From: Candidatus Magasanikiibacteriota bacterium
GTDB taxonomy: Bacteria > Patescibacteriota > Patescibacteriia > Magasanikbacterales > GWA2-37-8
Length of the DNA: 64,000 nucleotides
Direction of reading: 5' to 3'
Assembly: GCA_016189025.1 (NCBI GenBank)
Contig: JACPGS010000019.1
Span: forward strand, 16,272-80,271
Both the position numbers and the translations under genes were made by a program. A model generated the notes under the pieces. The model worked only from the letters and a program-made list of their open reading frames with translations, ran no database searches and was not told where the DNA came from. Shown in pieces: positions 11,474-53,200 of this stretch. Each line of letters starts with the position of its first letter. Positions within the stretch are counted from its first letter, which is position 1.

Positions 11474-11488
11474 ACGAGCGGATTAAAT

Positions 11489-34662: not shown

Positions 34663-35313
34663 TTGTTTTTATCTATCACTATTATGGAAAATTTTGCAGA
34701 TTTGAAGAAATTTGAAAATCGTGAGTCTCTGAAAAGAGATTTAGAAAATCGGGGTATTATTTTTAGTGATGGTTTAACTGGCCAAGAGATTACGCATGCG
34801 GAGAAAAAATTTAAGTTTAATTTTCCGCCCGACTTAAAAATGTTTCTTCAACATGCATTGCCAATCGCTAGAAAAGAGCGAGATGAATCGTTTTTTCCCG
34901 ATTGGAGGCATTTGAATAGTGATAGTTTGAATTTTTATATGGGTCTTCCATTAGAGGGAATATTGTTTGATGTTGAAAACAATAACTTCTGGTTGCCTGA
35001 ACTGGAACAGAAACCGCAAGATAGCGAGAAAGCAAAAAAGATTATGATTGAAGCTGTTAATAAAGCCCCAAAATTGATTCCTATTTATGCACACCGGTAT
35101 CTTCCCGCTGAGCCGCTTGAAGAAAATAACCCTATTTTTAGCGTGCATCAGACGGACATTATTTATTACGGATCATATTTGTATGATTATTTTCAAGTCG
35201 AATTTAATAAAAGGGTCTATGCAAGTAGTGGCGTAAAGCCGAAAAAAATAAAATTTTGGAGTGCAATTATAGAAAGCAATACCGGCCGGAGTGAATCGAT
35301 GCTGGCTCCATAG
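34663..35313 (+). CDS. SUKH/SMI1-KNR4-like immunity-protein candidate
   Basis: 'GLTGQEITHAEKKFKFNFPPDLKMFLQH' resembles the SUKH N-terminal 'I..aEk.lg..lP.dyk.FL' motif. It lies immediately downstream of the AT-rich C-terminus of the giant protein and shares its composition. Confidence 0.4.
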   Translation: MFLSITIMENFADLKKFENRESLKRDLENRGIIFSDGLTGQEITHAEKKFKFNFPPDLKMFLQHALPIARKERDESFFPDWRHLNSDSLNFYMGLPLEGILFDVENNNFWLPELEQKPQDSEKAKKIMIEAVNKAPKLIPIYAHRYLPAEPLEENNPIFSVHQTDIIYYGSYLYDYFQVEFNKRVYASSGVKPKKIKFWSAIIESNTGRSESMLAP

Positions 35314-35566
35314 TCCCGCTATAACCACCGCCACGATAATTTGCCACTCTGTCGATGTCCATTATGGTCAAGATTATAGCTATTTTGGTGGTCAAAAAGC
35401 AGCACAAGCGATATTAAATGGCAATGTGGTGTATTTGGTAGGTAATGATGTGTTGAAAATATATAATGCACAGGGTGGCGTTTGTGGGATATTAGGGTCA
35501 CCAATTAGCGAGTTTGATTCTGTCACTAGATCGCAACGTTTCGAAAACGGTGTTATATCGTTATAG
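35291..35566 (+). CDS. Small hypothetical ORF (91 aa), possibly a second immunity/orphan module
   Basis: Open frame, AT-rich, overlaps the previous gene's end. No motif. It could be spurious. Confidence 0.25.
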   Translation: MNRCWLHSPAITTATIICHSVDVHYGQDYSYFGGQKAAQAILNGNVVYLVGNDVLKIYNAQGGVCGILGSPISEFDSVTRSQRFENGVISL

Positions 35567-35596
35567 TAACTACTCTCATTTTCATTTATTACACAT

Positions 35597-35914
35597 ATGT
35601 TAGAAAAAATGCACAGTAAAATTTACCATCTATTCATGCCGAATATTTATAAGATTGTTATATTTATTATAATGAGCTTTATCACAATTTATGCTATAGG
35701 AATTTCTTTTTCCCTTGCGTTGACGGATGTGGAGGAAAAATTTAGCACAATCAACGGCATTATTAGCATATTTTTTGTATGGCCGTTATTGGCTATCGGC
35801 AATTTGATAGCGGGCTTAAGTTTAAATATCATATATATTTATATATTGAGTTGCATAATCTATTTTTCATTATTCTGGTTAAAAAATAAGCTGAAACAAG
35901 AAAAAGAAAATTAG
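35597..35914 (+). CDS. Small membrane protein with 3 predicted TM helices, hypothetical
   Basis: 'IYKIVIFIIMSFITIYAIGISFSLAL', 'IISIFFVWPLLAIGNLIAGL' and 'IIYIYILSCIIYFSLFWL'. Very AT-rich. Confidence 0.4.
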   Translation: MLEKMHSKIYHLFMPNIYKIVIFIIMSFITIYAIGISFSLALTDVEEKFSTINGIISIFFVWPLLAIGNLIAGLSLNIIYIYILSCIIYFSLFWLKNKLKQEKEN

Positions 35915-35917
35915 TAT

Positions 35918-38900
35918 ATGCCCAAACTTAAAAAAATTCTTGTTTGGTTTACGGTATTCGCCAATCTGGCGTTTAATTTTACGCTGGGCGGGCAAGTATT
36001 GGCGCTAGGCGCATCGGTTTCTGATTCTCAAAAAGCGTCTGTGGCTGAAATTGCGTCCCAACCCAAGGCCTCAGCCGCGCTCAATCGGGCAAGTATCAGC
36101 GGGGACACGGACAGTCCGGTGATTGATTTAACCACGGCGCCGCGTTGGCAGCCGAAAAAATTAATACCGGTAACGCCGGGATCGGCCCAGGTAAAAGCAG
36201 AGGCAATCAGATATCAAGAGGCGCCGGCCTCGCCCCGGGCCTTGCGGGGGGCGACCATTAAACAGTTATGGCAGAAAAAATCCGAGGCCGAGCGGAAAAA
36301 TGTATCAGCCGGGCAGTCTAAGTCCGTCAGTTTTAGCCAATGGAACCGATTGGTGGCTTGGGTGGGTAAGATGCTCGGGCCAACTCCGGCGCGGGCCGCC
36401 ACGCCGCTCATCGCCTATGAGGCCGGCATTGAACAGCGGCCGCTGGATTATGCTTTGTATTATTTAGCCAATCAGCAAAATCCCAATGGATCGTTTGGCG
36501 CGGCTAATGTTTATGAGGCCACGGCCGAGATGGTTTTCTTTCTTAATGACATCGGCCGCACCGCCAATGATCAGTATCTGCCGGCGCTTAATTATATTTT
36601 GAATACTACGCCGACCACGACGCGCGCCCAAGCGTTGAAAGCCAGAATAGTTGCCGGCCTGGGGCAAAACGCGACCCCGTTACTGGATGAAATCGTTTCC
36701 AGCCAAAACGCGGACGGCGGCTATGGGTTGTTGCCAGGCTACGAAAGCGATCTAGTAACTACTTTAGAGGTCGCGCTGGCTTTGCGGGCGGCCAATTATC
36801 AGCCGGCGGACCGGCAGACGGAAGCGTTATGGTTTGCGCTTAATCAGATTCCTGCTTCCGGAGAATTGCGTTATGCCGCCGTCAGCCCGCCCAGTTATTA
36901 TTTGATTAACAAAACGGCGCAAAATTTGCAGCCATTCCAAGGTTTGACAATTACCGACAGCCAGTCACAAATCACGGTGGCGGTTAATGATAAAGTGAAT
37001 GCCTTGCTGGGGTATTTGAGTTCGCAATACGATGCGTCATCCGGACGCTTGTTGGGAGCGGCCGATGTGCTGGATGAAATTATGACGGCGCAAACCTGGC
37101 GCCGTTACGGGGTGGAATTAATTAATTGGCACGCCTTGCGTCAATCAATTTTAAGCCAACAGCAAACCGACGGCTCGTTTATGAACTCGGTGCTGGCTAC
37201 CGAGCAGGGCATTGACGCCACGGCCTTGCCGGATTTGTCTTTGGTAGATCATATCAATACCACTCCTTTGGTTAATAAAAATAACGTTACTTGGCAGGTT
37301 ACCGTTACCAATGCGGGTTATGCCTCTAACGGTCAGGCCCGGCTTAATTTGGTGGCGGATAATGTTTGGGTGAGCACGGTGGATTTTGCGGGTCAGGGGA
37401 TAGTAGTCCCGCCCAACAGCACCGTAACTTTGAATATTAACGTGGCCGATACCACCGGATTGATTGGCGATACGGAAATCAAGTATTATCTTAGCGACGC
37501 GGAAGAGCTGAATTACGACAATAACTGGCTGGCCAAGCATTTTACTTTTGCCTCGGCCGCCGATGGTTCCCCGGCCTTGCCGCTTTATTATATTGCGCAA
37601 AAATGGGAGATCGGAAACGACCCGGCGGTGAACGTGCGCTGGCAGCGAAAAAGCGACCCGCAGCGGTTTAATTACGTATTTATGTACCGGGAGAAAGGAA
37701 CGGGACAGTGGAATTTTGCCTCTTTGGATAATTCTTTAGCCGGGGCATTTTTATCTCCTTTTGGCGAAGGGATAACTTACGAGATAACCATTGGGACAGT
37801 GCATTTAGACCAGCAAACCATAACTTATTTTAATAATTTAAGCGAGGTTACCACTAGCGCCGATCCCAATAAATTTATGGGTCAGGTGAGCGGCACGGTG
37901 GGTGATGCGTTTCAGAAGTTCCCTAATTTAAACACCACGGCCTACGGCGCCGGCGCTCTCACTGACAGTCAGTCAGCGTTTGTTTATGCGAAGATGGAAA
38001 ACGGTACTTCTGCGGCGCAGGTTGACGCCGCGCCCCATGAGTCAATCAGGAAAAAATTCGCAGTGGCAGTTGGTGCCACCACTACGGTGGCTCTTCCCAC
38101 CCGGTTAAAAGAGGATACCGTAGCGCCGCAGATTACCTACTTAGCCATTCCTTTAAGTAATTTCCTGATTAAAAATCAAACCGAAGCTAGCCTTAGCGCC
38201 AGCGTCTCGGATAATGTGGCGGCCAAGGAAGTTGATTTTTACTATTGGGATCCCGGTCCGGGCGCCTGGTTATTTTTGGGCACCGCCGAGGTAAGGAGCG
38301 GCGGGGCTTCGTTTTTGTGGTATGTGCCGGCAGATTTGCTGGGGGTGGGTTATAAAATAAAAGCAGTGGCCCGGGATTATCGCGGCAATGTATCGGCGCC
38401 CCAAGAGTGGGGTCCGTTCCAGATTATTGACGGCAGCCCGCCCGCCCGCACCATCTCCGGCACAATCAGATATTACGACGGTGTAAAAACAGTGCCCAAT
38501 GCCACGGTAATTTTACAAAATGATGTTGGCGCGCAATTAGCCGCCACCACTACCGACAGCAACGGCAGGTATCAATTTACCGGTGTGGCCGATGGCGGCG
38601 CTTACGGGGTGACGGTAACCTCAACCGACATGAGCACCAATGGCGTTGATAGTGCTGATCAGACCAAGATCGGCAGGCACATTGTTGGTTTGGAGCCTTT
38701 TGATTCCATTTACAAAATAATTGCCGGGGATGTTAATGATAGCGGTGGTCTTACTAGTGCTGATCAGGGAAAGATCGGCCGGTTTATCACTGGCCTTGAT
38801 GTGAACCTGCCTTCCGGTATTTGGAAGTTTTATGATGCCAGCGTTGTTTTAACTTCCGCCAATTATTTAACCACCGGTTTAGCCAAAACATATACCAACT

Positions 38901-41230
38901 TAACCGCGGACCAGGCTGACCAGGATTTTGTCGGCATTAAAATGGGAGACGTAGACAATTCGTGGAGTACTGCCAATAAAGATATCACCCTATTCAGCTT
39001 CCCCTCTGCCACCAGCACCATCACCGGCGCCAATATCGCCGTCACCGTTCCGTCTGGCACTAATGTTACGGCTCTGGTGCCCACCATTATCCACACCGGC
39101 GCTTCGGTCAGCCCGGGGAGCGGCGCGGCGCAAGATTTTACCAATCCGGTCACCTATACTGTCACCGCCCTTGATGGTTCAACCCAGGCGTACACAGTGA
39201 CGGTTACGGTTTCGCCTCCCCTGGTCATTATTTATGAAGACGGAAACGACCTGGACACTGCCCCCTGGTTCGTGAGCCCCGCGGGCACCACCTCGCAACT
39301 GGAAAATATCGCGGCCGACGATCCGGCCCACGGCCGCGTAATTAAGCTCACTGCCAGCCCTGCCTCCAGCCGGATGGTATTCTATGCCCCCACCAGCAAC
39401 CCCTGGCAATACCCCAGCCTCCCTATTTTACAGTGGGATTTTAAGTACCAAACCCAGGCCAACTTCTTTATCTCGCTCAAAACCGATAACACGGCCATTA
39501 ACAACGGCTATCTCTACCTCTCGTACGCCACCGCCAACACCCCCGGCTTCCGCGGCAACACCTTTTATTATCAGCTAGACCCCGCGCTTGCCGATGGTTC
39601 TTGGCGTACCTTAACCCGCAACCTTCAGCAGGATGTGGCGGCTTTTTCGCCCAACACCACCATCCTCGGCATTCAGTACTTCTCGGCCTATGGCACTGGC
39701 AGCATAGACAATCTGGCTCTGCTCAAAGAAAGCGCCCTCGCTACCGTATCGGGCAAAGTCGTTGACGCCAAAGGCAACCCGATCGTCGGCGCTCTTATCA
39801 GCGCCCCGCCCTATAATCTGACGACAGTTACCGACAGCCAAGGCAACTACCGCTTACCGGGCCTGCCCCCGGGTTCGTATACGCTCACTCCGGTAAAGTT
39901 TGGCCTTGATCTGCCCGCTGCTTCGGTCACGGTTGGCGTTTCTGGCGCTGATGTTTCTGGAATTAATTCGTCAGGCAACTTCGTCCTCTACGAATCCGGC
40001 GATGACCTGGACACCGCCCCGTGGTTCATTTCCCCCGCTGGCACCGCCTCCACCCTGGCCAACGTCAGCGACGACGCTAACCACGGCCGCGCCATTGCCC
40101 TGACCGCTAACGACCCTTCCACCCGGATGGTGTTCTACGCTCCTACGAATAACCCCTGGGCGCTCGCCACTCACCCGGTACTGCAGTGGGAAATGAAATA
40201 TTCGAGCGATCCGGAATTCCTGATCTATCTTAACACCAACAACGGCGTCCGCTACTTGTCATACGGCACGCAAAACACCCCAGGCTGGCGGGGCAATAAG
40301 TTTTATTTTAAGCTTGACCCTGGTTTTAAGGATGGTAAATGGCACACCCTCATTCGCAATCTCCAGCAAGACGTTGCTTCACTTTCCTCCACTACTACCA
40401 TTACCGGCATCAGCTATTTCTCCGCGTACAACAGCGGCCGGATTGACAATCTTCAGCTTAGGCCCGCCCAGCCCCTCTCCACTGTTTCCGGCACGGTTAC
40501 CGACGACCAGGGGAATTCCGTGGCTGGAGTAGCGGTTTCCGCTCCGCCTTACGGGGTCAGCGTTCAAACCGATGCCACTGGTAAGTACTCCCTCCCCGGC
40601 CTTCCTGCTGGTTCTTACACTCTGACCTTCCAAAAACCAGGCTACACTTTCCCCACGACCCTCCTGACCGTAGACGGCTCTAACCCTAACCTGACGCAAG
40701 ACGTGAGCGGCACCCTGCCCGCCTCAATCACCTACGAAGACGGCAGTGACGGCGATACCAACCCCTGGTTTATCAGCCCCGCTGGCACTAATTCAACTCT
40801 GGTAAACATCATAGACGAAGACCCGGCGCACGACCGCGTCATCAGTCTTACTGCCAACGCCAATTCCACCCGCCTGGTCTTCTACGCTCCGGCCTCTAAC
40901 CCCTGGGCCTATCCGGCGCTTCCCATTATTCAGTGGGACCAGAAGTACGCCGGCGATTGGGAAGTCCTTGTCTACCTGGACACCTCGGCCGGCGCCCGTT
41001 ATCTCTCCTATTCGCCGCATCACGCCAGCAATTACCTCTACAACAATAACACCGCCCGCCTTAAAATGGACGCCAATCTGGCAGACGGCGCCTGGCACAC
41101 CATTACCCGCGATTTGCAGGCTGATTTCGCCACGCTCTTCCCGGGCGTTACCATTACCGGTGTCAAGTATTTCTCGGTTTACGGGACGGGGCGGATAGAC
41201 AATTTACGGTTATTGAAGCAGCTGCCGTAA
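35918..41230 (+). CDS. Giant secreted protein (1770 aa). Domain order: an alpha/alpha-toroid (prenyltransferase/terpene-cyclase-like 'QxxDGSFG' repeats), Ig-like domains, a dockerin-like Ca-binding repeat pair, then three copies of [uncharacterised ~190-aa module + CarbopepD_reg].
   Basis: Signal peptide 'ILVWFTVFANLAFNFTLGGQVLALGASV'. 'QQNPNGSFG', 'SQNADGGYG' and 'QQQTDGSFM' are toroid repeats. 'GDVNDSGGLTSADQGKIGRFITG' and 'STNGVDSADQTKIGRHIVG' are dockerin-like. Module copies start at 'LVIIYEDGNDLDTAPWF', 'FVLYESGDDLDTAPWF' and 'ASITYEDGSDGDTNPWF'. Confidence 0.75.
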   Translation: MPKLKKILVWFTVFANLAFNFTLGGQVLALGASVSDSQKASVAEIASQPKASAALNRASISGDTDSPVIDLTTAPRWQPKKLIPVTPGSAQVKAEAIRYQEAPASPRALRGATIKQLWQKKSEAERKNVSAGQSKSVSFSQWNRLVAWVGKMLGPTPARAATPLIAYEAGIEQRPLDYALYYLANQQNPNGSFGAANVYEATAEMVFFLNDIGRTANDQYLPALNYILNTTPTTTRAQALKARIVAGLGQNATPLLDEIVSSQNADGGYGLLPGYESDLVTTLEVALALRAANYQPADRQTEALWFALNQIPASGELRYAAVSPPSYYLINKTAQNLQPFQGLTITDSQSQITVAVNDKVNALLGYLSSQYDASSGRLLGAADVLDEIMTAQTWRRYGVELINWHALRQSILSQQQTDGSFMNSVLATEQGIDATALPDLSLVDHINTTPLVNKNNVTWQVTVTNAGYASNGQARLNLVADNVWVSTVDFAGQGIVVPPNSTVTLNINVADTTGLIGDTEIKYYLSDAEELNYDNNWLAKHFTFASAADGSPALPLYYIAQKWEIGNDPAVNVRWQRKSDPQRFNYVFMYREKGTGQWNFASLDNSLAGAFLSPFGEGITYEITIGTVHLDQQTITYFNNLSEVTTSADPNKFMGQVSGTVGDAFQKFPNLNTTAYGAGALTDSQSAFVYAKMENGTSAAQVDAAPHESIRKKFAVAVGATTTVALPTRLKEDTVAPQITYLAIPLSNFLIKNQTEASLSASVSDNVAAKEVDFYYWDPGPGAWLFLGTAEVRSGGASFLWYVPADLLGVGYKIKAVARDYRGNVSAPQEWGPFQIIDGSPPARTISGTIRYYDGVKTVPNATVILQNDVGAQLAATTTDSNGRYQFTGVADGGAYGVTVTSTDMSTNGVDSADQTKIGRHIVGLEPFDSIYKIIAGDVNDSGGLTSADQGKIGRFITGLDVNLPSGIWKFYDASVVLTSANYLTTGLAKTYTNLTADQADQDFVGIKMGDVDNSWSTANKDITLFSFPSATSTITGANIAVTVPSGTNVTALVPTIIHTGASVSPGSGAAQDFTNPVTYTVTALDGSTQAYTVTVTVSPPLVIIYEDGNDLDTAPWFVSPAGTTSQLENIAADDPAHGRVIKLTASPASSRMVFYAPTSNPWQYPSLPILQWDFKYQTQANFFISLKTDNTAINNGYLYLSYATANTPGFRGNTFYYQLDPALADGSWRTLTRNLQQDVAAFSPNTTILGIQYFSAYGTGSIDNLALLKESALATVSGKVVDAKGNPIVGALISAPPYNLTTVTDSQGNYRLPGLPPGSYTLTPVKFGLDLPAASVTVGVSGADVSGINSSGNFVLYESGDDLDTAPWFISPAGTASTLANVSDDANHGRAIALTANDPSTRMVFYAPTNNPWALATHPVLQWEMKYSSDPEFLIYLNTNNGVRYLSYGTQNTPGWRGNKFYFKLDPGFKDGKWHTLIRNLQQDVASLSSTTTITGISYFSAYNSGRIDNLQLRPAQPLSTVSGTVTDDQGNSVAGVAVSAPPYGVSVQTDATGKYSLPGLPAGSYTLTFQKPGYTFPTTLLTVDGSNPNLTQDVSGTLPASITYEDGSDGDTNPWFISPAGTNSTLVNIIDEDPAHDRVISLTANANSTRLVFYAPASNPWAYPALPIIQWDQKYAGDWEVLVYLDTSAGARYLSYSPHHASNYLYNNNTARLKMDANLADGAWHTITRDLQADFATLFPGVTITGVKYFSVYGTGRIDNLRLLKQLP
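39225..41225 (+). repeat. ~2 kb segment (module copies B1-B3) about 88-90% nucleotide-identical to 53160..55150 in the 2994-aa gene
   Basis: Long near-identical runs, for example 39961-40450 vs 53911-54400, and 40700-41220 vs 54650-55140. Confidence 0.75.
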
Positions 41231-41529: not shown

Positions 41530-43062
41530 ATGGTAGGAATAACTCGCTATAAGTTCATTATGAAGCCAGATTCCGATCGGCGCGCGACGGCAATTCAGCG
41601 TTTACTAAGTACTAAACCGTCAGCGTTTTGGGAGCGCCTCCGCGAGCGCCGGACGTTGGAGCTGTTCCACCGGGCGGCCGAAGGAGTGCCGGCTTATCGT
41701 GATTTTTTGCGCCGGCATCAGATTAATCATGCTAAAATAAAAAGTTGGGCCGATTTTCAGCAGGTGCCCATTATCAACAAAAAAAATTATCTGCGCCACT
41801 ATCCTCTGCCGGCGCTTTGCTGGGGCGGCACCTTAAAGCGTCCCTTAGTTTTTACTGCCACCTCCGGCTCCACCGGCGAGCCGGTTTATTTCCCCCGCGG
41901 CGAGGCGCTGGACTGGCAGTATTCAATAATAGTCGAAACATTTCTCCGCCAGTCGCGCTCGGGGGGACCGGTCTTGGTGATTGTCGGGTTTGGCATGGGA
42001 GTGTGGATTGGGGGGCTGATTACGTATCGCGCCTTCGAAATTGCGGCGGCGCGACTCGGTTATCCGCTTTCGATTATTACGCCCGGGATTAACAAAGAAG
42101 AAATTTTTAATGCGTTCCGGCGGCTGGCGCCGCACTACCGGCAGACCATTCTCATCGGCTATCCGCCGTTTATTAAAGATATTATTGACGAAGCGCCGGA
42201 GCGTGGCATTAAGCTGAAGCAGTTAAATCTTCGCCTCTGGTTTGCCGCCGAAGCTTTTAGCGAAACCTTCCGCGATTATCTGGCGCAGCGGGGCGGCGTG
42301 CAGAGCTGTTACCGGGGTACTATTAATATTTACGGCAGCGCCGATATCGGCGCCATGGCTTACGAATCCAACGTCAGTATTATGGTGAAGCGGCTGGCGC
42401 GGCGCCGCCCGCGTTTATTTACCAGTTTATTTTCGGCGATTAACAAAACGCCCACTTTGGCCCAGTATCATCCGCTGTTTATTAATTTTGAGGCGCCGGG
42501 GGGCGAGATTGTGTTAACCGGCGACAATGCTCTGCCCTTGGTGCGCTACGCGATTGGCGACCACGGTGGGGTGTTTAGTTTTGCCGAAATGGAGGAGCGG
42601 CTGGCAGGCGCCGGCGTGCGGCTCTCGGCAGAACTCCGCGCCGCCGGCTTCTCGCGCGCCAGTATCGCCGCGCTGCCGTTTGTCTATGTTTACGAGCGGA
42701 GCGATTTTTCGGCCACGATTTACGGATTGCAGGTGTATCCCGAAACGATTCGGGAGGTTTTGGCGGATAAATCGTGGGCACCGTATTTTACCGGTAAACT
42801 TACTATGCGCACCGAATTTGATTCCCGGCAAAATCAGTTTTTGGAAATTAATGTGGAGCGGCGCAAAAACCGCGTCGCTCCCCCGGCACTGCGCCGTAAA
42901 TTAATCGCGGCGATCCTGCAGAATCTGCAGCGTAAGAATTCGGAATTCCGGGAATTGGTAAAGTATGTTCAAGGGCGCCCGTTGGTGCAGCTGGCGGTTT
43001 GGCCGGCGGAGCATCCGCAGTATTTTCGCCCGGGCGTTAAACAAAGATGGGTGGAAAAATAA
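41530..43062 (+). CDS. Phenylacetate-CoA-ligase-like (PaaK/CapK/F390-synthetase family) adenylate-forming enzyme
   Basis: 'FTATSGSTGEPVYFP' is a P-loop-like AMP-binding motif of the PaaK family. 510 aa. The start may be the Met at 41560 (MKPDSDRR…). Confidence 0.65.
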   Translation: MVGITRYKFIMKPDSDRRATAIQRLLSTKPSAFWERLRERRTLELFHRAAEGVPAYRDFLRRHQINHAKIKSWADFQQVPIINKKNYLRHYPLPALCWGGTLKRPLVFTATSGSTGEPVYFPRGEALDWQYSIIVETFLRQSRSGGPVLVIVGFGMGVWIGGLITYRAFEIAAARLGYPLSIITPGINKEEIFNAFRRLAPHYRQTILIGYPPFIKDIIDEAPERGIKLKQLNLRLWFAAEAFSETFRDYLAQRGGVQSCYRGTINIYGSADIGAMAYESNVSIMVKRLARRRPRLFTSLFSAINKTPTLAQYHPLFINFEAPGGEIVLTGDNALPLVRYAIGDHGGVFSFAEMEERLAGAGVRLSAELRAAGFSRASIAALPFVYVYERSDFSATIYGLQVYPETIREVLADKSWAPYFTGKLTMRTEFDSRQNQFLEINVERRKNRVAPPALRRKLIAAILQNLQRKNSEFRELVKYVQGRPLVQLAVWPAEHPQYFRPGVKQRWVEK

Positions 43063-44144
43063 ACCTGTTTATGGAACCGCAGCTGATTACTAAAGTCGGC
43101 GCCTCACTTGAGGAATTAAGGCAGCAGTTTCCCGCCGCCGAGATAATTGACCGTTACCAGGAACAACTGGAAGAGCTGTTTTTAATCCGCCATCCCCAGT
43201 ATCGCTTTAATAAAAATTATCAATCAGACTGGGCGACCTTTTTGGCCGCGCACCAGGGAGGCCGTCCCCTCTCGGCGCTCGGCAGCTGGTTTTATTTTCC
43301 CTGGAGCCGTCAGCTGGTTCATTATTTGCCTCACGAGTTGCACCAAGAATTGCGCACGGCGCGCAACCGCAACCTTATTACTGTTGCCGAGCAGGAGAGA
43401 TTTTATAATTTTACCGTCGGCATTGCCGGGTTAAGTGTCGGCAGTCATCCTGCCGCTACCTTGGCGATGATGGGCGGAGCGCGGGCAATGAAACTGGCCG
43501 ATGCCGACACCCTGTCGGCATCTAATTTGAACCGCGTGCGTTATGACTACACCCAGCTCGGCGTCGCTAAGTGCGAACTGGCGGCGCGCTATATTTATCA
43601 GCTTAACCCGTACGCCTCTCTTCGGCTATACCAGGCCGGCATTACGGTTGACAATATCACAGAATTTTTAGCGGGCGACCCTCGGCTGGATGTATTGATA
43701 GAGGAGATGGATAATCTGGAGATGAAAATTCGGATTCGCCTGGCGGCGCGGGAATTAGGAATCCCGGTAATTATGGCGACCGACAACGGCGACGGCATCA
43801 TTGTTGATATTGAGCGATATGATTTGGATCGCCATTTGCCGCTTTTCAACGGCGCTGCCGGTGATTTAACTCTGGAAGAATTTCAAAATTTTCCGCCGGA
43901 GCGGCTGCCGGAGTTAGCGGCCAAAATTGTCGGTCCCGAGCTGATTGTGCCCCGCATGCGCGCCTCGCTCGGGGAGGTCGGCAAAACTCTGTATTCCTGG
44001 CCCCAGCTGGGGGATGCGGCTACGCTGTGCGGGGTGGCTGCGGCTTATTTAGTTAAGCGGCTGGCGATTGGCGAAGAGGTAAAAAGCGGGAAATATGAGA
44101 TTAATTTGGGCTCCCTGTTTAGCAGTGATAAGGATTATCAGTGA
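43047..44144 (+). CDS. ThiF/MoeB/E1-like adenylyltransferase-fold protein with an N-terminal extension
   Basis: 'FTVGIAGLSVGSHPAATLAMMGGARAMKLADADTLSASNLNR' matches ThiF 'GxGxxGS…A..LA..G…L.L.D.D.V..SNLNRQ'. 'MATDN' matches the MoeB 'DATDN'. It overlaps the PaaK-like gene by 16 nt, so the two are translationally coupled. Confidence 0.65.
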   Translation: MGGKINLFMEPQLITKVGASLEELRQQFPAAEIIDRYQEQLEELFLIRHPQYRFNKNYQSDWATFLAAHQGGRPLSALGSWFYFPWSRQLVHYLPHELHQELRTARNRNLITVAEQERFYNFTVGIAGLSVGSHPAATLAMMGGARAMKLADADTLSASNLNRVRYDYTQLGVAKCELAARYIYQLNPYASLRLYQAGITVDNITEFLAGDPRLDVLIEEMDNLEMKIRIRLAARELGIPVIMATDNGDGIIVDIERYDLDRHLPLFNGAAGDLTLEEFQNFPPERLPELAAKIVGPELIVPRMRASLGEVGKTLYSWPQLGDAATLCGVAAAYLVKRLAIGEEVKSGKYEINLGSLFSSDKDYQ

Positions 44145-44399
44145 TGAGCCAAGAAGTACCATTCCGGTAGTTCTGTCGCGGTACTATACGCCCCTCATGG
44201 GCGTATTTTTATCCACAGTTTTAGCCGCGAGTTCACCTTTACAAGCATCTTGTATAGTTGTATATTAGCATTGAGGGGGCAAGGATTGACGTAAAATGTG
44301 TCTGCAGGTATTCTGCAGAGAGGAACCCTCCCCGCTATTTTAGTAGTGAATTAGGATAAGTTTATCAAATTATCGTAATTACTCCCTTTTCTTCTCTTT

Positions 44400-45086
44400 A
44401 TGCAACCAAACACCGTAAAAATCACAATCATTTTTTCACTGGCGGCGATAATTTTACTCGGTGCCGGTTGCGTACTATTTCAACCAAAAAATAACGCTCG
44501 TCGCCAGCAGTCTGTTGCCAACGTTACCAATGATGAGCGAAAGAAATTGTACGAAAATAAAGAATTAGGTTTTGCCTTTGCTTATCCCGCTGAATTTGGC
44601 GAAGTGATTCTAGAAAAGGGGGCAGGCGAAACCGGAAATATATATAGCGGAAAGTTTACTGTGAAGAGCGACATTATATTTGGTGGCCTTAGCGTTGACT
44701 ATACTGCCGGCACTGATTTCGGGACTATTAGTTTTAATCAAGGCTTTCAGAAGAAGTTGGCGAATCGGTATGAATTAAAGTATGGCCCAGATATCAATGT
44801 ATCCATTCTTAATATTGAACCGTTACAAACGTTATACACGGCAGACAATGAGGAGATATTAGTGTTTGATGCCAGTGGCATGCTTGATTATCGCGATTAT
44901 GATCCCGAAACCGATGGCGGGATGGGCGGCCAGGTTTCGCCGGAAGGCAAAGCAGCAGTTATCAATTTGAAGGGCAATATCTATAAATCCATTACCTTTG
45001 AATTGTTAAATGCCACAGAAAACAAAGAAGCCAATAAACAGTTCATTGATATTTTGGAATCTATCAAGGTAACCTCCCCGGAATAG
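44400..45086 (+). CDS. Lipoprotein paralog 1 (228 aa), hypothetical
   Basis: 'MQPNTVKITIIFSLAAIILLGAGC' is a signal peptide with lipobox. The N-terminal 45 aa are nearly identical to paralogs 2 and 3. Confidence 0.6.
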   Translation: MQPNTVKITIIFSLAAIILLGAGCVLFQPKNNARRQQSVANVTNDERKKLYENKELGFAFAYPAEFGEVILEKGAGETGNIYSGKFTVKSDIIFGGLSVDYTAGTDFGTISFNQGFQKKLANRYELKYGPDINVSILNIEPLQTLYTADNEEILVFDASGMLDYRDYDPETDGGMGGQVSPEGKAAVINLKGNIYKSITFELLNATENKEANKQFIDILESIKVTSPE

Positions 45087-45135
45087 CGATATGTTTATCA
45101 AATTATCGTAATTACTCATTTTCCTACTTCTCTTT

Positions 45136-46377
45136 ATGCAACCAAACACCGCAAAAATCACAATCGTCTTTTCGCTTTCCGCAATCATTTTATTTGGCGG
45201 TGGTTGCGTACTATTTCAACCAAAAAATAACGCTCGTCGCCAGCAGTCTGTTGCCAACGTTTCCGCACCCGGGAGCGAAAACATCATCGCTAACGCTTTT
45301 TATCTCCCGATGGCGCCGGCAGATATCCAAACATTCCTTAACTCCCAACCGGGAATTCTCAAAAATTATCAAGAGCAGAATTACAGCCAGACTTTTTCCG
45401 GCGCGGAAATTATAGACTCTGCTGCCAATGACAGCCTGCGCGGGTTATTGAACCCGCGCATTTTACTGGTTTTGTTAGAATTCAAAAAAAACGTCATCAC
45501 CAATAGCAATCTCCAGGCCAGCGATCTTAAAAATCTGTTCGGTCTATCGTCAGAACGCGTGGAACGATTGAATGCCCGCATTTTCCTCGGCGGCGAATAC
45601 TGGACAGAATTTCCTGACGCCTGGCAAAATCTCCTCCTCCAGCTCACGGCGGCCGCCGAAACATTGCGACAGTATCCTGCCAATATCTCTATCGTGTCTT
45701 TTCGTGACGGCACAACCTCGACGCTACCCAATACTCTAAACGAGGAGACCAAACGCCTGGAGGCGTTGCTGGCTGAACTGGCCGATACGCCAGCACAGTG
45801 GCGGCGCTGGATCTCCAAGGAGCCGGGGTCGTTTTATGAGGTTTATAAAAGGTGGTTTGGGAATCCAGTGAAGGAAATTACTACTTTAACCGCAACAAGC
45901 ACCAGTGCAGATACTATCTCTCCAACATACCTCAACCAAGATTATCGTTCCTCCAAATTATATTATGATTTTGGAACACTTGAGTTGTCAGGTTATTTGG
46001 CTATTCAAAAATTTACTTGCGACCCCGAGATAGAGCCAATGTGTGAGGGTAATACCGATTATGCTTTTTTCGTTATTACCAATTCTTCTAATAAGAGTAA
46101 TTTTTACGATTTTCTGAAGGCCGGTGGTTATTATCCGTTAATTCAGTCAGATAGAATTGGGATAGGTTGTTACCAAGAAAAAGAGCAGAAGATTCATTCT
46201 GTTAATACCAGCGATCTAGATTGGGTTACGAGCGTTATCGGTGGGGACGAATTTAAAAAGTTAGTGGCCAGCGATAAAGAACACCCAGTTCGTCTCCGCC
46301 TAACCCGTCCCATTTTTAGCGGGGGTAGTGGCGCCCCCGAATGTTACTCGCATTTTAGATATTTTAAGGTGTGGTAA
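45136..46377 (+). CDS. Lipoprotein paralog 2 (413 aa) with a middle domain shared with the S8/M23 giant protein
   Basis: 'MQPNTAKITIVFSLSAIILFGGGC'. The middle ~200 aa '…NPRILLVLLEFKKNVITNS…QWRRWISKEPGSFYEVYKRWFGNPV' aligns with the 47238-gene segment '…NQRILLVLLELKAQVITNS…QWQQWVSKNGGSFYDLYQRWFGTPL'. Confidence 0.6.
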   Translation: MQPNTAKITIVFSLSAIILFGGGCVLFQPKNNARRQQSVANVSAPGSENIIANAFYLPMAPADIQTFLNSQPGILKNYQEQNYSQTFSGAEIIDSAANDSLRGLLNPRILLVLLEFKKNVITNSNLQASDLKNLFGLSSERVERLNARIFLGGEYWTEFPDAWQNLLLQLTAAAETLRQYPANISIVSFRDGTTSTLPNTLNEETKRLEALLAELADTPAQWRRWISKEPGSFYEVYKRWFGNPVKEITTLTATSTSADTISPTYLNQDYRSSKLYYDFGTLELSGYLAIQKFTCDPEIEPMCEGNTDYAFFVITNSSNKSNFYDFLKAGGYYPLIQSDRIGIGCYQEKEQKIHSVNTSDLDWVTSVIGGDEFKKLVASDKEHPVRLRLTRPIFSGGSGAPECYSHFRYFKVW

Positions 46378-46403
46378 CAGATTATTTTTACTTTTTTCTC
46401 TTT

Positions 46404-47231
46404 ATGCAACCAAACACCGCAAAAATCACCATCATCTTTTCGCTTTCCGCCATAATTTTGCTCGGCGGTGGTTGTGCGTTTTTTAAATTACAGCCATTCT
46501 CACGGGCCCCGCGGCAATTAAGCTCGGTGCCGGTAACAAGCTCTCAGCCAGCTAACCCTACAGCAGTTCCGGGGAGTGAAAACATTATGAATGGCATATT
46601 TGATATGATTATGGAGAAAAAAGATATACAAAAATTTATTGACCAGCAACACGGTATTTTAAGTAAATATAAAGAAGATTCTTCTGATGGTTTAAGGACT
46701 GTGGCAGAGGAGTTAGACCAAGTTACCACTTTAGATTTGCCCACGTCTCTTAATCCGCGCGTGTTTTTAGTTTTAATGGAATTAAAATCAAGTATTGTTA
46801 CCAGGCCTAACGTTACTGATTCGGAGGTTAGGAATGTTTTTGGCGTAACCACACAGCAGTATATAGATTGGCTGATAAAATATATCAACGCGCGAAGGCC
46901 TAGTGAAAAATTGTCACCGGGAGAAATAACAGAACTTAAGGGCCAGTTTAGCACCACCACACTACTAATGCAGTTGGAGTATGTTACCGATAAATTTATG
47001 GGTGCAATTTTTGAGGAACAATCCTCGCGTAAAATTATTTTTAAAAATGGCGATTCCTTCCAACCAGCGGCCAATATCAATTCAGAGACCTATGCTATTC
47101 AAGCGATAATGGCAGACTTAGCGGATTCGCAAGAGCAGTGGGAATTATGGGTGTCTAAAAAACCAGGGTCGTTCTACCAAACTTACAAGCAGTGGTTTGG
47201 CGACCCTGTATTAAGTGAGGATTTAAAATAG
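46404..47231 (+). CDS. Lipoprotein paralog 3 (276 aa; the listed ORF starts at 46371)
   Basis: 'MQPNTAKITIIFSLSAIILLGGGC'. It carries the same middle domain (…NPRVFLVLMELKSSIVTRP…QWELWVSKKPGSFYQTYKQWFGDPV). Confidence 0.6.
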   Translation: MQPNTAKITIIFSLSAIILLGGGCAFFKLQPFSRAPRQLSSVPVTSSQPANPTAVPGSENIMNGIFDMIMEKKDIQKFIDQQHGILSKYKEDSSDGLRTVAEELDQVTTLDLPTSLNPRVFLVLMELKSSIVTRPNVTDSEVRNVFGVTTQQYIDWLIKYINARRPSEKLSPGEITELKGQFSTTTLLMQLEYVTDKFMGAIFEEQSSRKIIFKNGDSFQPAANINSETYAIQAIMADLADSQEQWELWVSKKPGSFYQTYKQWFGDPVLSEDLK

Positions 47232-47237
47232 CCAACT

Positions 47238-50200
47238 TTGCGATTCAAAACGCTTGGTAATATGTACAAAACCATTTTTTTAAAATGGCTGCCAGCTCCA
47301 TTAGCGGCAATTTCCTTAGTTAGCTTGCTTTCGACGCCGGCTTTAGCATTGGAGAATGAAAATGTTGGCCCGTTGTCTGCTTCGTCTACTTTAGAGGCGC
47401 CGGTAGCGGACGCCTTGGCCACTTCTACCTTTCTTTTTGGCGCCTCTTCAACCACCGCTGTTTTAGAGCCAGGCAAACAACCGGGTAGTGATAAGACTGA
47501 TAAGGCGGCGGCAGAAAAGAAACAACGAAACTTTACGATTCCAATTTTTGATAAATCCCTGCGCGATAAGTATGGGGATAATTTAACGATTACCGATGAC
47601 GATGTATTCCTTGGCAGTGGCTTGATCAGCAGAACGGCCAGCACCACGCCCGCCGAAGCCGAACAAGCAGCCCGCGAGCGCCAGCGCGACTATGCAGCGC
47701 GGCGAGAGCGCATTAAAACCCGTCAGCAAAAGAAGGAGCAGTCATTACTTGCCCCTCGTTTCCGACCCGATGAACTGATTATTAAATTTAAGGTCAATGT
47801 TTCCGAGCTGGAGCGGGCAGAAGTATTGCGGGGGCAGGCATTAAAAGAGTTGGCCATTCGTTCTGTGCGTTCGCGCGTCGTTTTGCCGGGCGAAAAAATT
47901 ATCCTTAACAAGCAGTTAAAATTTGATGAGATGCGTTCGCTGGCGGCGACCCTGAAGCAGGATCCGCGCGTGGAATATGCGGAACCCAATTTTATCGCCC
48001 GCGCGTTGTCGGTAGCGCCCAATGACAGTGATTATGGCCAGCAGTGGGCGCTATCCAAAATACAAGCGCCGGATAGCTGGGAAATTACCACCGGCACCCC
48101 TTCGGCGGTGATTGCTATTTTAGATAGCGGCTGGAGCGCAACGCATCCCGACGCGCCGGCGCGTACGGTAGCAGGTTATGACTTTGTAGGCGATGACAGC
48201 GTGCCAGACGATGATAACGGCCATGGCACCTTGGTGACCGGGGTAATTGCCGGTAAAGCCAACAACGGCCTTGGCATTGCCGGCGTTTGTTGGGAGTGCG
48301 CCATTATGCCGGTTAAGGTGGTAAATAGCGTCGGAGAAGCCACTGTCGCGGATGTGGCAGACGGTATCCGGTGGGCCGTTGATCACGGAGCCAAAATTAT
48401 CAATATCAGCGTCGGCTCTTATGATTATTCGGTATATTTAAAAGAAGCCATTGATTATGCCCTAGCTCGGGACGTACTAGTGGTGGCGGCGGCTGGCAAT
48501 GATAAATCCAATTTTCCGGTGTACCCAGCCGCGTTGCCCGGTGTTATTGCCGTTTCGGCTACTACCAATGCCGACCAGTTGTGGGCTAGCTCAAATTATG
48601 GCGGTTATGTAACTTTAAGCGCCCCGGGTGAAAATATCTACAGCACGGATTTTAACGGCGGATATTCGTTAACGAGCGGCACCTCGTTAGCGAGCGCTTA
48701 CATTTCTGGGGCCTTGGGCATTCTGCAGTCGGCTAAACCCAATACCACTTCCACGCCATTGCTACAGGCGCTACTGGCCGGCGCTGATGATGTTGGTTTT
48801 GCTGGTAAAGACAGCTATTTCGGCGTCGGGCGGCTTAATATTATGAAGGCCCTGCAGGCGCTTTTGGGCAATAATTTAACCGGCGGTTTGCCGGAGAAGC
48901 CGGCGTATAGCGAGGATGATATATTTGGAGATGCTTTTTATTCCACCATTTCACTATCAGAAATCAGAAATTTTCTTAGTGCTCAAGCTGGCATACTCAA
49001 AAATTATCAAGAGGAGAGCCAAGGGCAAATTTTAGCCGGAGCAGATATTGCTGATATCGCTTCAATCGATAGTCAATTGGCGCCAATCAACCAGCGGATT
49101 CTTTTGGTGCTTTTAGAATTGAAAGCGCAAGTTATTACCAATTCTGCTCTTTCCCCGTCAACGTTACCGACTATATTTGGCGTTACTCAACAACAATATC
49201 TGCAATTTCTTCGCGCCATAGGTGTTTCTGAAGATAAATTAACACCCCTACCCACCACTGACCGTCTGCTCATTCAACTTACCTATGTAGCGGAAAAACT
49301 TCGGGAATACTTGAATTTAGGTGAATCAGGAGTGAGACAAATTATCTTTAAGGATGGTACGACGGTGGATACACCAACGCAAATTAACGCGGAGACTTAT
49401 GCACTGCAACGGCTGTTAGCTGAACAGGCGGATTCCCGCGCGCAATGGCAGCAATGGGTCTCAAAGAATGGCGGTTCTTTTTATGATTTATATCAACGTT
49501 GGTTTGGTACGCCGCTACAAACACTAGCTGGCAAAATAATTGAGCCACCCGCCATTCCTTTTTTACAGAAGCCGTATCGCGATGAAACATATTGGTGTGG
49601 TGTCACCAGTTTTTTTGATCATAAGTATCCTGTTTATTATTCTCAAGAAGTCGCTCGCGGTAATTTTGCTACCGACACCGTTGCATTATTCACAGGGAAT
49701 ATTCTAACTGCAGTGCCTACCACTACGGGATATAATTCTTATACTGGGCATGACGGGTTTGATATGCTTATTCGAGACTGTAATACATCCGGTCCTGCAG
49801 CTATTGGTAAAAATGTTCTTGCTGTCGCCGATGGCGTAGTCACGAAAGCCACTTCAACAAATTCGGCTGGTAATATCGTTTGGGTCGAACACGATGCGGA
49901 TGGTGACGGAAGAAATGATTACCGAACTGCCTACTATCATCTCAAAGAACCCAGTTCTCTTCATCCCGGTGTCACTGTATCAGCAGGTGTAACAATTATA
50001 GGGATAGCAGGCGATACAGGTCGTTCATCTAAAGGGGTACATTTGCATTTCGGCGTTTATAAATTGATCTATAATTCTAACGGTTCTTTTAATTCGGCTA
50101 AAGCTATTGACCCCTACGGCTGGTGGGGTGATTATCCTGATCCCTGGGAGGTGGCTAATAAATATGCCAAGAGTTCCTTTTTGTGGAAATCCTCCACCGA

Positions 50201-53200
50201 AGTTGATGACTTAGACCCAGGATTTACTGCGTTTAACAAACAATCCAAAGATACTCTATGGAATTATTATCCGAGTAAACTAGCCACCGCGGGTCGCGCG
50301 CTGTATACCTACGCCCAATTCCAGCCTGCCCGCCACTGGGATAACTGGGCGTTTTGGGGTGCGGATTTGCCTACCGCCGGTAAATATCAGGTATTTGCCT
50401 ATATCCCCTCCAGCACTTTAAAAAAGGAAATCTCCTCGGCCGTAATTTATCACGTTTATCACCAGGGAGGGATGACTACTACCACGGTTAACCAAAAGCA
50501 ATGGGCCGGGCAGTGGGCGCCGCTCGGTGAATTTATGTTTGAGGCCGGTGCTCATGCGGCGGTGCGGCTGGTGGACGAAACCGAGGACGCGGCCGATCAG
50601 GGCAAAGTGATCTGGGCCGATCGGGTTAAATGGATTCCGGTGGGCGACGCGCCGGCGCCTGCTCCACCGCCTCCGGATTTGCAGATTATGAATGACGGCA
50701 GTTTAAAGTTCGTGCGCTATACTCCCGGATTGCTCTCGCAACGTTATCAGTATTATCTGACGGCGACTGTTAAAAATATCGGCGGCAGCGACACGGTTGA
50801 TGCGGCGATCTGTTTTAAGGTTAAAGTCGGCGCGGAAAATGGGCAATGCGTGGGTAATAAAAAGCTCGGGGCGATTGCTGCTTCCCAATGGCAAACCATA
50901 AATTTGTCTTTTACCCTGGCGGATGACCTCGCCCGCTACTCTACCAGCACTATCGTGGGCGCGCTGACAATTGTGCCAACTAGCGTGTATCCCGCGGAGT
51001 CCGAGTCCGGCACCAGCAACAATAGCGTGGATCTTAGCCGCGGATTATTCGGCGACACGGTAGGCGGCGTGGATTTTACTCTAACCGAGTTATCCGGTTT
51101 GCAGATTGAGTCCGGCAGCGGCGACGTGAAATTTGTGATGAAATCCGAACAAGCCGCGGCCGGCGATGCAGTAATTGATTTGAACAATTTTCACTCCGAG
51201 ATGGCCAAAATATTTTTGCAAGCCTTGAGTATTCCCAACTACAAGCAGCATATTTCTCTTGATATCATCAAGATCAGCGGCGGTTATACCGGCCAAGCTG
51301 CCCTGGCGCCGCCGTTTGAACAGACTGATCAAGCCGATGCCATGCTGAATGCTGACCTAGCCATGAAATTTGATCTGTTCGGCAAATCTGACCTGGTTAC
51401 TTACGGCGATATTTGGACTAATTTAGTCAGCCAAAGTCCTTATTTGGCAGAAATCCAGGCCTCGGGTTTTCGCGAACAACCCCGCTGGATCATCGCCGCC
51501 ACCATTATCCCCGGCCGCATCACCGCCAGTCAGACCGGCAACACGATGTTTTTTGAAGACATTGATTTGGATATTAATACCGGCTGGTGGGTGGAGGAAC
51601 CTGCCCTTAATTTAACTCCTTACAATCTAAGCAGCGCGGCGCAGCAAGATTTGCAACAACGTTTAGCGGTTTATAAATCCCGGCTGGAAACTATTGTTAA
51701 AGATTACGCCAAAAATATTTTAATTCCCGAAATGAATAGTCCCGATGGCATTGCCGATCCCCGCTATAAGCGGCTGCGTTCGGTATACGGCGCCGTGGCC
51801 GCGGCGCAGTGGTATAAAGAACAGGTGCGCCGCAATCCGCAACTCCCGTTTGCCGCGCTGGTGGATTCCGAAAATCTTGCCGGGCTGGAATTGCCGACGC
51901 CGTTTGACCGCGCCTATTGGGATGTCCAGGCTTATCAATTGATCGCCAAGCAACCCTGCAACTGGTGGATTAATACGCCCGGCGAGTGTTCCCTGACAGG
52001 CGGCGCGGATTGGCAGCAAAGCCAGCCAGCCGTTACCGGCGCTCTGTCTTTTACCGAACAGTATATTGCCTCGTCTACTCTAGGCAGTTTTGAGGCAGTG
52101 CAGGGCAGCGGTATCAATTATGCTTTCGGGTCGGCTGTGCATGATGATAAGAATGCGCTGCCAGACATTGCTTTTAAAGATGCCGTGGTTACTGATCACA
52201 ATAATGAGAAGATTTTAGCCGGGGAGCCGGTGTCGTTTGTCGCCAGAACAACCAGCACTAATTTTCCCGCCTCGCAAGAATACTTTGTTAAGGTGCTTGA
52301 TACTTATTCTACTGAAGACGGACGCACCATTACCGACGAAACATGGTTGTTAAGACTTACTGCGGGCATTGGTAACTCCGAGATATTATCCACCACCGGG
52401 CGCGCCTTCCGTAATATTGGTTTGCATCATATTACTTTTGTGATTGACCCCTCTAATGATATTCCGGAATCCGACGAAACAAATAATACCCATGATTTAT
52501 ATATCAATGTTAAGCCGAACGGTTTGATCTTACAAGTGCGGCAACCGGCAGCGGGGGCAACGGTAATGCTTGACCCCGATCACCCGCTGGTGTTGAGAGG
52601 CGAAGCCTATGATGCCCCCCGGGAAGTTTATCTGTCTGGCACTTCGGTGGAATGGCGATCTGATGTTGATGGCTTTTTAGGGTACGGGCCGGTGGTGATT
52701 AAAGAAGCGTTGACGCCCGGGTTGCATACCTTTTCGTTTCTTGCTTTTGGCTTATACCACGAGGCAGTTACCACTACTCGTTTGAATGTACAAATCAAGC
52801 CCCAGCCGGGACTTGCCGTCAGCAGCAGCCAGGCCAGCGTTACCAGTTCGGCGACGTATGATTTTGGCAAAGTATATATTGGCGCCAGCAGCAGCGTTTC
52901 GTATGTGTTACGCAATAACGGCGCTGCCGACCTCAATTTTTATGATACGCCCCCGGTTATGGTGAGCGGGGCTGACGCCGGTGAATTTACCGTAGTAGAA
53001 CAGCCGCCGTCGGTATTGCCGCCGGGTTCCGCCGCTACCTTCACCATACGTTTTGCTTCAATGGCCACCGGGACAAAAGAGGCGGCTGTTAATATTGCCA
53101 ATAACGATCATCGTGTTGCGTTGTTTACTATTGAATTACGCGGCCGGGCGGAAATTGCACCGCTAATCTACGAATCTGGCTCGGACGGCGATACCAATCC

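Follow-up and report, generated by a model that had tools for sequence, protein, structure and literature searches.

A PaaK-like ligase and a TrzS-like ThiF protein share a conserved five-gene operon of Patescibacteria that may build an oxazolone-type heterocycle

The window analysed here, a 64,000-nucleotide (nt) stretch from a metagenome-assembled genome (MAG) of Candidatus Magasanikbacteria, carries two adjoining genes, designated A and B, whose products belong to two different classes of adenylating enzyme.

41530..43062, + strand: gene A; longest open reading frame (ORF), 510 amino acids (aa), probable true start at 41560; PaaK-family adenylate-forming ligase
43047..44144, + strand: gene B; longest ORF, 365 aa, probable true start at 43071; ThiF-fold protein of the Rv1355c/TrzS type

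The A-B pair belongs to an operon of five genes that recurs in hundreds of bacteria of the Candidate Phyla Radiation (CPR; Patescibacteria). In this operon, A is preceded by a gene for an amino-acid dehydrogenase (DH) or an aminotransferase (AT), and B is followed by genes for a flavin oxidase of the nitroreductase superfamily (N) and a multi-transmembrane histidine kinase (HK). The cassette is best filed as a ligase-dependent, DH/AT-linked, kinase-coupled CPR variant of the oxazolone-synthetase pathway, outside the characterised families. Whether it does build a small heterocycle of the oxazolone (azlactone) type is a proposal to which we give about an even chance.

The comparison set comprised 80 species-representative loci with a B homologue, nearly all labelled as Patescibacteria lineages; the few loci with other labels have the same neighbour genes. 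Six-frame ORFs of these loci were searched with the window proteins, and the neighbour genes were grouped by all-against-all clustering. The resulting gene order, all on the same strand, is [Leu/Trp-type amino-acid dehydrogenase or aminotransferase]-A-B-N-HK. Gene A was found in all 72 loci with enough upstream room to contain it, within about 100 nt of B in 65 and at a distance of 1.1-5.2 kb in the other 7. The two adenylating folds do share one conserved transcription unit, as a first-pass annotation of the window had supposed, and the pair is conserved as neighbours well beyond this genome. On the other side of B, the N gene adjoins B in 69 of the 80 loci (median gap 3 nt), is fused to it in 2 and lies 1.8-7 kb away in 3. 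An HK gene follows N in 73 of the 80 loci and encodes a protein of about 540 aa with HisKA_7TM, HisKA and HATPase_c domains. The slot directly 5′ of A is taken by an ELFV amino-acid dehydrogenase in 25-28 loci and by a HisC-like class I/II aminotransferase in 14 others. Both types of enzyme interconvert amino acids and 2-oxo acids, and the alternation represents an analogous displacement. In the closest relative outside this organism (locus L090, B 65% identical), DH-A-B-N-HK are contiguous within 6.4 kb. Single-domain CheY-like receivers occur just 5′ of A or DH in about 14 loci. The tryptophanyl-tRNA synthetase (TrpRS) gene follows HK in roughly 14-20 loci, and further aminoacyl-tRNA synthetase (aaRS) genes (Arg, Tyr, Leu/Val-type and class II) are also present around the cassette; their proximity is probably housekeeping synteny.

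Each cassette enzyme is fused to its neighbour somewhere. The B-N fusions are those of loci L022 and L075, and single polypeptides combine DH with A (P0251), A with ThiF (P0260), ThiF with A (P0332) and DH with A and ThiF (P0343). The last four are metagenome gene calls and artefacts are possible among them; the reversed ThiF-A order of P0332 speaks against simple read-through.

As longest ORFs, A and B share 16 nt, the overlap given in the first-pass annotation, which described the pair as translationally coupled. The identical A protein is annotated by NCBI with 500 aa, starting at M11 (position 41560; P0121), and the identical B protein with 357 aa (P0001); homologues of B begin at the residue aligned with M9 (ATG at 43071). 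On these grounds the real starts are probably 41560 for A and 43071 for B, which would replace the overlap with an 8-nt spacer. Whichever starts are right, tight packing of the two genes is conserved: the A-B gap has a median of 8 nt over the 72 loci, and 24 pairs overlap. Homologues at 45-65% identity are counted in the hundreds and the A family includes 743 clusters at E≤1e-30 in an exhaustive profile search, so that A and B can be taken as real genes as opposed to chance ORFs.

Proteins were compared with Pfam, NCBIfam and PADLOC family models and, for structure, with Protein Data Bank (PDB) entries, using AlphaFold2 models and Foldseek. The ThiF core of B spans residues 106-244 (Pfam ThiF, E 2e-19). 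The extra 100 or so N-terminal residues fold confidently in the model, with a predicted local distance difference test (pLDDT) of 75-96 against 84 overall, which upholds the earlier description of a ThiF-fold protein with an additional N-terminal domain. The best family match is NCBIfam PRK07877, the Rv1355c family (positions 26-342 of 722, E 4.6e-90, 302.8 bits); the runner-up ThiF family gives E 2.5e-18. The match to the Rv1355c model spans its whole N-terminal half, including the extra domain. TrzS, the Rv1355c product, converts N-acyl-Trp to N-acyl tryptazolone by an ATP-dependent cyclisation followed by an O2-dependent desaturation; the D217A change abolishes its cyclase activity and R540A its desaturase activity (PMC12856293). 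An alignment of B with 23 homologues showed the ATP motifs GxAGLSVGS and SNLNRxR, together with K175 and D222, to be invariant in the family. D222 aligns with the catalytic-site Asp of TcdA/ThiF (IDAID in TcdA) and, by position and motif rather than by direct alignment, would be the counterpart of TrzS D217. No cysteine of B is invariant among the 23 aligned homologues.

The possibility that B is an ordinary ThiF, MoeB or TcdA was rejected. B scores far under the curated NCBIfam cut-offs of these families (66 vs 159 bits for ThiF, 42 vs 449 for MoeB and 35 vs 304 for TcdA), and there is no carrier protein: no gene for a ThiS/MoaD-type beta-grasp carrier is conserved in the 80 loci. Known anti-phage defence systems were likewise rejected at the level of PADLOC models, which returned weak superfamily matches only. 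By sequence profile and fold, the solved structure nearest to B is AclA of Tenacibaculum discolor (PDB 9egb/9egc, a 2025 entry titled 'AclA in complex with substrate'). AclA may be a further small-molecule ThiF-like enzyme.

Together, B and N account for both halves of the Rv1355c model, and the B-N fusions reproduce the TrzS arrangement within CPR bacteria. The N protein of the window aligns with the C-terminal half (positions 373-653 of 722, E 6.5e-20) and carries the conserved motif APSxxNxQPW. Two subtypes of the oxidase occupy the slot after B. The majority subtype is Rv1355c/PRK14851-like and matches window N at 1e-8 to 1e-20. The minority subtype is Acg-like and comprises N of the window and of loci L029 (11001-12095), L082 (11066-12112), L028 and L084; window N matches the L029 and L082 proteins at E ~1e-77 and those of L028 and L084 more weakly. 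Either the oxidase has diverged very rapidly or a paralogue has taken its place.

The same pairing is found in the other characterised oxazolone systems. OxzB of Pseudoalteromonas rubra (10.1101/2020.06.11.147165) and TyzB plus TyzC of M. tuberculosis (PMC10404671) perform the same conversion as TrzS on N-acyl-Tyr. OxzAB, TyzACB (Rv2336-2338c) and TrzAS (Rv1356c-Rv1355c) all have, like the CPR cassette, a ThiF-like cyclase paired with or fused to a nitroreductase-superfamily oxidase. In these systems, the substrate is made from acyl-CoA by an N-acyltransferase resembling GNAT enzymes or acyl-homoserine lactone (AHL) synthases, whose gene is a neighbour of the ThiF/oxidase gene(s); in the OxzAB and TrzAS operons it directly precedes them. 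A third, upstream gene placed to supply substrate exists in the CPR cassette as well; there, the slot is held by the PaaK-like ligase instead of the GNAT/AHL-synthase-like enzyme. The cassette differs further by its conserved DH/AT gene, by its multi-transmembrane histidine kinase and by its host, the known systems being those of Proteobacteria and Actinomycetota. No description of the cassette was found in the literature searched, and neither mycobacterial oxazolone paper mentions CPR bacteria, a ligase partner or a kinase.

Protein A, for which there is no Pfam match, resembles PaaK in sequence as well as in structure. The NCBIfam PaaK model matches its N-terminal half (E 5e-13, 48.4 bits vs a cut-off of 646.3), and PDB entry 2y4o, a PaaK, is matched by sequence at E 1.6e-8. 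The AlphaFold2 model (pLDDT 86; predicted template modelling score, pTM, 0.82) has PaaK1 (2y27) as its top Foldseek match (E 1.3e-22, template modelling scores 0.66/0.76), followed by BT_0428 and then by the PaaK-family AMP-ligases NatL2, AjiA1 and ClxA. In 30 homologues, the ANL motifs (P-loop TSGSTGxP, YG..D.G, GD.GG and R390) are invariant, and so is the C-terminal lysine K504 (FKPGxKQKW). These results agree with the earlier assignment of A to the PaaK-like enzymes. The phenylacetate-CoA ligases (Burkholderia PaaK1/2, BT_0428) are thus the best matches and share the adenylation motifs with A. A differs from them by its far lower score, which does not reach equivalog-level similarity to PaaK, by extra insertions and by the lack of a catabolic context, since no paa genes were seen in the window or in the 80 loci.

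The PaaK fold and the intact adenylation motifs make it plausible that A is a non-CoA ligase. A precedent is offered by the non-thioesterifying AMP-ligases of benzoxazole biosynthesis (NatL2, AjiA1, BomJ and ClxA), which share the fold of A (Foldseek E 1e-17 to 1e-14). NatL2, a PaaK-family member, joins its acyl-AMP to a second substrate without CoA, and these enzymes show that a PaaK-type ligase can deliver its acyl-AMP to a hydroxyl or amino function of another small molecule during the making of an oxazole-type ring (PMC7204872). Their identity to A is merely 16-17%, A is some 70 residues longer, and their own substrates are aryl acids of the 3-hydroxyanthranilate type. Moreover, the ring-forming partner in the benzoxazole pathways is an amidohydrolase (NatAM), as opposed to the ThiF-like enzyme of the CPR cassette.

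With the gene identities, the folds, the intact catalytic motifs, the conservation of the operon, the fusions and the insertions described below established, a pathway can be proposed; its individual reactions, its substrates and the function of the kinase are all deduced from homology and gene order. DH or AT would provide the precursor by interconverting an amino acid and a 2-oxo acid. A would adenylate a carboxylic acid and use the acyl-AMP to acylate an amino acid at its amino group, with an N-acyl (possibly N-2-oxoacyl) derivative as the result; this amide-forming step would proceed without a CoA thioester, as does the coupling by NatL2 of its own substrates. Acting as a cyclodehydratase, B would use ATP to activate the carboxylate of the amino acid, allowing the amide oxygen to close the ring, and N would introduce the double bond between Cα and Cβ. 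HK, at times with CheY-like receivers, would sense the product or control the pathway. In this genome, the natural-product-type methyltransferase (MT) encoded after N fits a small-molecule pathway and possibly performs a tailoring step on the product. Among the carboxylate-activating functions listed in the first-pass annotation, formation of a small-molecule amide comes nearest to the evidence, and tagging of proteins or modification of ribosomally synthesised and post-translationally modified peptides (RiPPs) is not supported.

Several observations weigh against the proposed pathway. B remains below the curated Rv1355c cut-off (302.8 vs 476 bits, with B covering half of the model), and even the naturally fused L022 homologue, whose alignment covers positions 25-712 of 722 (E 1e-134), scores 450.5 bits vs 476. 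Because both fall short, the B family would constitute a related but distinct subfamily beside Rv1355c. Window N is nearer to the Acg family, whose function is unknown (NCBIfam, E 8.6e-56), than to the Rv1355c oxidase domain. An N-acyltransferase of the OxzA/TyzA/TrzA type is absent from the conserved neighbour clusters of the 80 loci, and the formation by A of an amide rather than a CoA thioester is solely our proposal. Many CPR bacteria are anaerobes, whereas the known oxazolone oxidases need O2. The 45-65% identity maintained across a genome-reduced superphylum looks more like housekeeping than like secondary metabolism. Finally, the window copy might be impaired, as B has lost its tail and the operon is fragmented (see below).

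The operon might instead make a different heterocycle. A would then join an amino acid to either a second amino acid or a 2-oxo acid, B would turn the product into another kind of ring, diketopiperazine-like for instance, and N would desaturate it in the manner of the cyclic-dipeptide oxidase AlbA. The presence of DH/AT in the operon and in the fusions does point to an amino acid or a 2-oxo acid as a substrate of A. Desaturation of amino-acid-derived compounds by AlbA-type enzymes is among the reactions of the nitroreductase family (10.1101/2020.06.11.147165), and in indolmycin synthesis a Trp-derived acid is coupled in an ATP-dependent manner toward an oxazolinone (PMC8246080). We consider this scheme decidedly unlikely: the strong and specific similarity of B is to the cyclase half of TrzS, and no characterised ThiF enzyme is known to yield diketopiperazines. 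The indolmycin coupling enzyme, Ind3, may be PaaK-like as well. A more prosaic explanation would make A an ordinary ligase forming aryl- or branched-chain acyl-CoA, alongside DH/AT in the catabolism or salvage of amino acids and 2-oxo acids. B and N would then have a substrate of their own: a housekeeping metabolite, a cofactor or, as with TcdA, a tRNA base. The operon as a whole would be a housekeeping unit. True phenylacetate-CoA ligases are indeed the best matches of A in sequence and structure, the closer relatives of B with a solved structure include TcdA, and the cassette is highly conserved in minimal genomes, amid aaRS and other housekeeping genes. Yet no oxidoreductase of the indolepyruvate:ferredoxin (IOR) or branched-chain 2-oxo-acid dehydrogenase (BCKDH) type, which could connect a 2-oxo acid with an acyl-CoA, and no thiolase or transferase is conserved in the cassette across the 80 loci, A and B fall far below the PaaK and TcdA cut-offs (48 vs 646 bits and 35 vs 304 bits), and the existence of A-B and DH-A-B fusions argues for a common substrate of A and B, or for successive ones. 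We regard this explanation as fairly unlikely.

The first-pass annotation had raised for the pair the possibility of a tagging system, in which an E1-like enzyme and a second adenylase would modify a protein with a ubiquitin-like protein (Ubl), a peptide (RiPP or thiazole/oxazole-modified microcin, TOMM) or a glycan, with the giant surface proteins encoded nearby as possible targets. B does combine an E1/ThiF fold with an extra N-terminal domain, as do the RiPP enzymes MccB and PaaA, and it gives weak matches (1e-8, to the ThiF core alone) to Cap2 E1-E2 models of the cyclic-oligonucleotide-based anti-phage signalling system (CBASS) in PADLOC. ThiF-like and nitroreductase-like proteins co-occur in azoline/azole RiPP systems too. 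Nevertheless, none of the expected partners (Ubl, E2, JAB, YcaO or a small precursor ORF) is conserved near the cassette in the 80 loci; the intergenic gaps of 3-8 nt leave no room for a RiPP precursor; and B is devoid of an invariant cysteine. The Foldseek alignments of B to MccB and PaaA extend over some 260-290 columns, too short to include the N-terminal domain of about 100 residues, where a peptide-binding (RRE/peptide-clamp) domain would be expected, together with the core. The giant proteins are missing from nearly all related loci, and inserts found elsewhere are heterogeneous. The tagging hypothesis thus appears highly improbable, and the functional tie to the surface-protein locus that went with it falls away, given that the cassettes of the 80 loci and of L090 are compact and free of giant proteins.

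Returning to the oxazolone proposal, a polytopic kinase closes almost all cassettes, which has no counterpart in the known systems and suggests sensing of the product or of its precursor. By extension, the cassette could be a signal synthase with its receptor, releasing a diffusible oxazolone-type product that HK would detect and CheY-like receivers would relay. The authors of the TrzS study point out that oxazolones resemble signalling molecules (PMC12856293). We put this extension forward tentatively and consider it rather unlikely. Gene pairs made of an autoinducer synthase and a multi-transmembrane sensor kinase are exemplified by CqsA/CqsS and LuxM/LuxN. Like the CPR cassette, these have biosynthetic gene(s) beside a polytopic kinase without a periplasmic domain; the likeness is one of gene arrangement alone, with no sequence relation.

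Oxazolone synthetases are recent discoveries (2020-2025), made in Proteobacteria and mycobacteria. If correct, the proposed pathway would be a third, ligase-dependent route to oxazolones, independent of an acyl-CoA N-acyltransferase. It would be conserved over a large part of Patescibacteria, whose minimal genomes are not expected to retain dispensable chemistry, and, being nearly always tied to a dedicated membrane sensor kinase, would give a handle on the purpose of oxazolones as well as on small-molecule signalling and metabolism in uncultivated episymbiotic bacteria. Should the synthase-receptor extension also prove true, the cassette would serve quorum-sensing-like or symbiont-host signalling, a first physiological role for oxazolones, in bacteria credited with almost no biosynthetic capacity. 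As for annotation, one coherent pathway would lie hidden behind thousands of CPR proteins now labelled 'phenylacetate-CoA ligase family' or 'ThiF family'.

The window illustrates how the conserved operon can be broken up by insertions of giant surface-protein genes. Its layout is DH / 15-kb block / A-B / 12-kb block / N-MT-HK1-HK2, with the following features besides A and B:

19953..20393, + strand: stand-alone CheY-like receiver, 146 aa (Pfam Response_reg, E 1.5e-21)
24821..25924, + strand: DH, Leu/Trp/Phe-type amino-acid dehydrogenase (Pfam ELFV_dehydrog_N and ELFV_dehydrog)
26178..41230, no strand assigned: insertion 1, 15 kb, identified from Pfam domains; outside the pathway
44186..44206, + strand: terminator-like hairpin and T-run just after B (consensus scan, pattern match)
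44400..56222, + strand: insertion 2, 12 kb, identified from Pfam domains, lipoboxes and shared 5′ repeats; outside the pathway
44400-45086, 45136-46377 and 46371-47231, + strand: lipoprotein paralogues of 228, 413 and 286 aa (lipobox LLGAGC/GGGC)
56380..57405, + strand: N, Acg-like flavin oxidase of the nitroreductase superfamily
57783..58817, + strand: MT, S-adenosylmethionine-dependent methyltransferase of the COMT/natural-product type (Pfam Methyltransf_2 and Dimerisation)
58821..60455, + strand: HK1, multi-transmembrane sensor kinase of the HisKA_7TM type, 544 aa (Pfam HisKA, HATPase_c and HisKA_7TM)
60461..62053, + strand: HK2, paralogous multi-transmembrane histidine kinase, 530 aa (Pfam)

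The decisive partners of the pair lay beyond the reach of the first-pass annotation: N 12 kb downstream, DH 16 kb upstream, and the histidine kinases. DH is orthologous (E down to 8e-125) to the gene directly 5′ of A in 25 loci and in L090, and on this basis would be the first gene of the ancestral cassette. Its PDB matches include leucine dehydrogenase (LeuDH; 3vpx, 3e-80), tryptophan dehydrogenase (5b37, 2e-69) and phenylalanine dehydrogenase (1e-41). The 'ScyB Trp dehydrogenase' best match and the TrpRS gene after HK had hinted at Trp-specific chemistry, a notion downgraded because the window DH is slightly nearer to LeuDH and several other aaRS genes surround the cassette. The receiver lies 4.4 kb 5′ of DH and is possibly the response-regulator partner of the cassette kinase; its membership in the cassette is an inference. 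N starts 12.2 kb 3′ of B. MT, whose PDB relatives are DsyB, MfnG, RedM, SibL and ASMT, has no homologue in the 80 loci. HK1 has about 7-8 hydrophobic helices, and HK2 matches the same ORFs of the 80 loci as HK1, more weakly. The kinase gene is tandemly duplicated in the window; two copies are present in L075 too.

The first-pass annotation had rightly placed A-B between giant secreted proteins and three lipoprotein paralogues with lipoboxes. Since L090 and related loci have a compact, block-free cassette, it is the giant surface-protein genes that were inserted into the operon, twice, and not the operon into them. Insertion 1 contains a 1131-aa giant gene (- strand), a gene for a 1566-aa transglutaminase/RNase-toxin with a SUKH immunity gene, and a gene for a 1770-aa giant protein; L090 and most of the 80 loci have contiguous cassettes that lack this block. 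Besides the three lipoprotein genes, insertion 2 encodes a 2994-aa protein in which S8, M23 and FG-GAP domains are recognised. Other interrupted cassettes have heterogeneous inserts (ABC transporter genes, GmrSD, unknowns). From the hairpin just after B, A-B would now be transcribed on its own. B of the window stops about 25 residues early, at 44120-44144, missing a conserved C-terminal tail (R..R..FLK.IGL, alignment columns 405-430) present in 23/23 homologues; the truncation point coincides with the start of the 12-kb insertion. Reading of positions 56150-56480 revealed no evident remnant of the lost tail 5′ of N.

Modules shared by the giant genes (see below) flank A-B as direct repeats 12.4-13.9 kb apart, which are possible recombination substrates. 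The GC content of the two halves of the cassette differs (DH 0.57, A 0.55 and B 0.53 vs N 0.42, MT 0.34, HK1 0.37 and HK2 0.46), in a window that ranges from 0.35 to 0.61 in 2-kb bins. A mosaic origin could account for the contrast, as could a chimeric MAG contig or a downstream half that has been replaced.

The giant genes at 26178-29573 (-), 35918-41230 (+) and 47238-56222 (+) have in common tandem modules of about 740-760 nt, made of CarboxypepD_reg and Glce beta-sandwich domains, with 65-91% nucleotide identity. The three lipoprotein paralogues (44348-47231) have their first ~138 nt in common, corresponding to the signal peptide with lipobox, and the first and second also share a 48-nt segment upstream; none gave a Pfam, NCBIfam or PADLOC match. 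The 1566-aa protein (29939-35313) carries an LGFP repeat in addition to its transglutaminase core and ends in a barnase-type RNase domain (PF00545, residues 1467-1565). Directly after it, a gene with a GC content of 0.36 gives a weak SUKH/SMI1-KNR4 match (E 5e-4, under the Pfam cut-off). SUKH/SMI1-KNR4 proteins are known as toxin-immunity proteins, and from these domains the two genes look like a polymorphic-toxin pair. Elsewhere in the window, a segment of low GC content (0.38) at 9773-12511 encodes an NYN-domain protein, an unknown 180-aa protein and a SIR2_2-domain protein among aaRS genes, and may be a small defence or mobile island.

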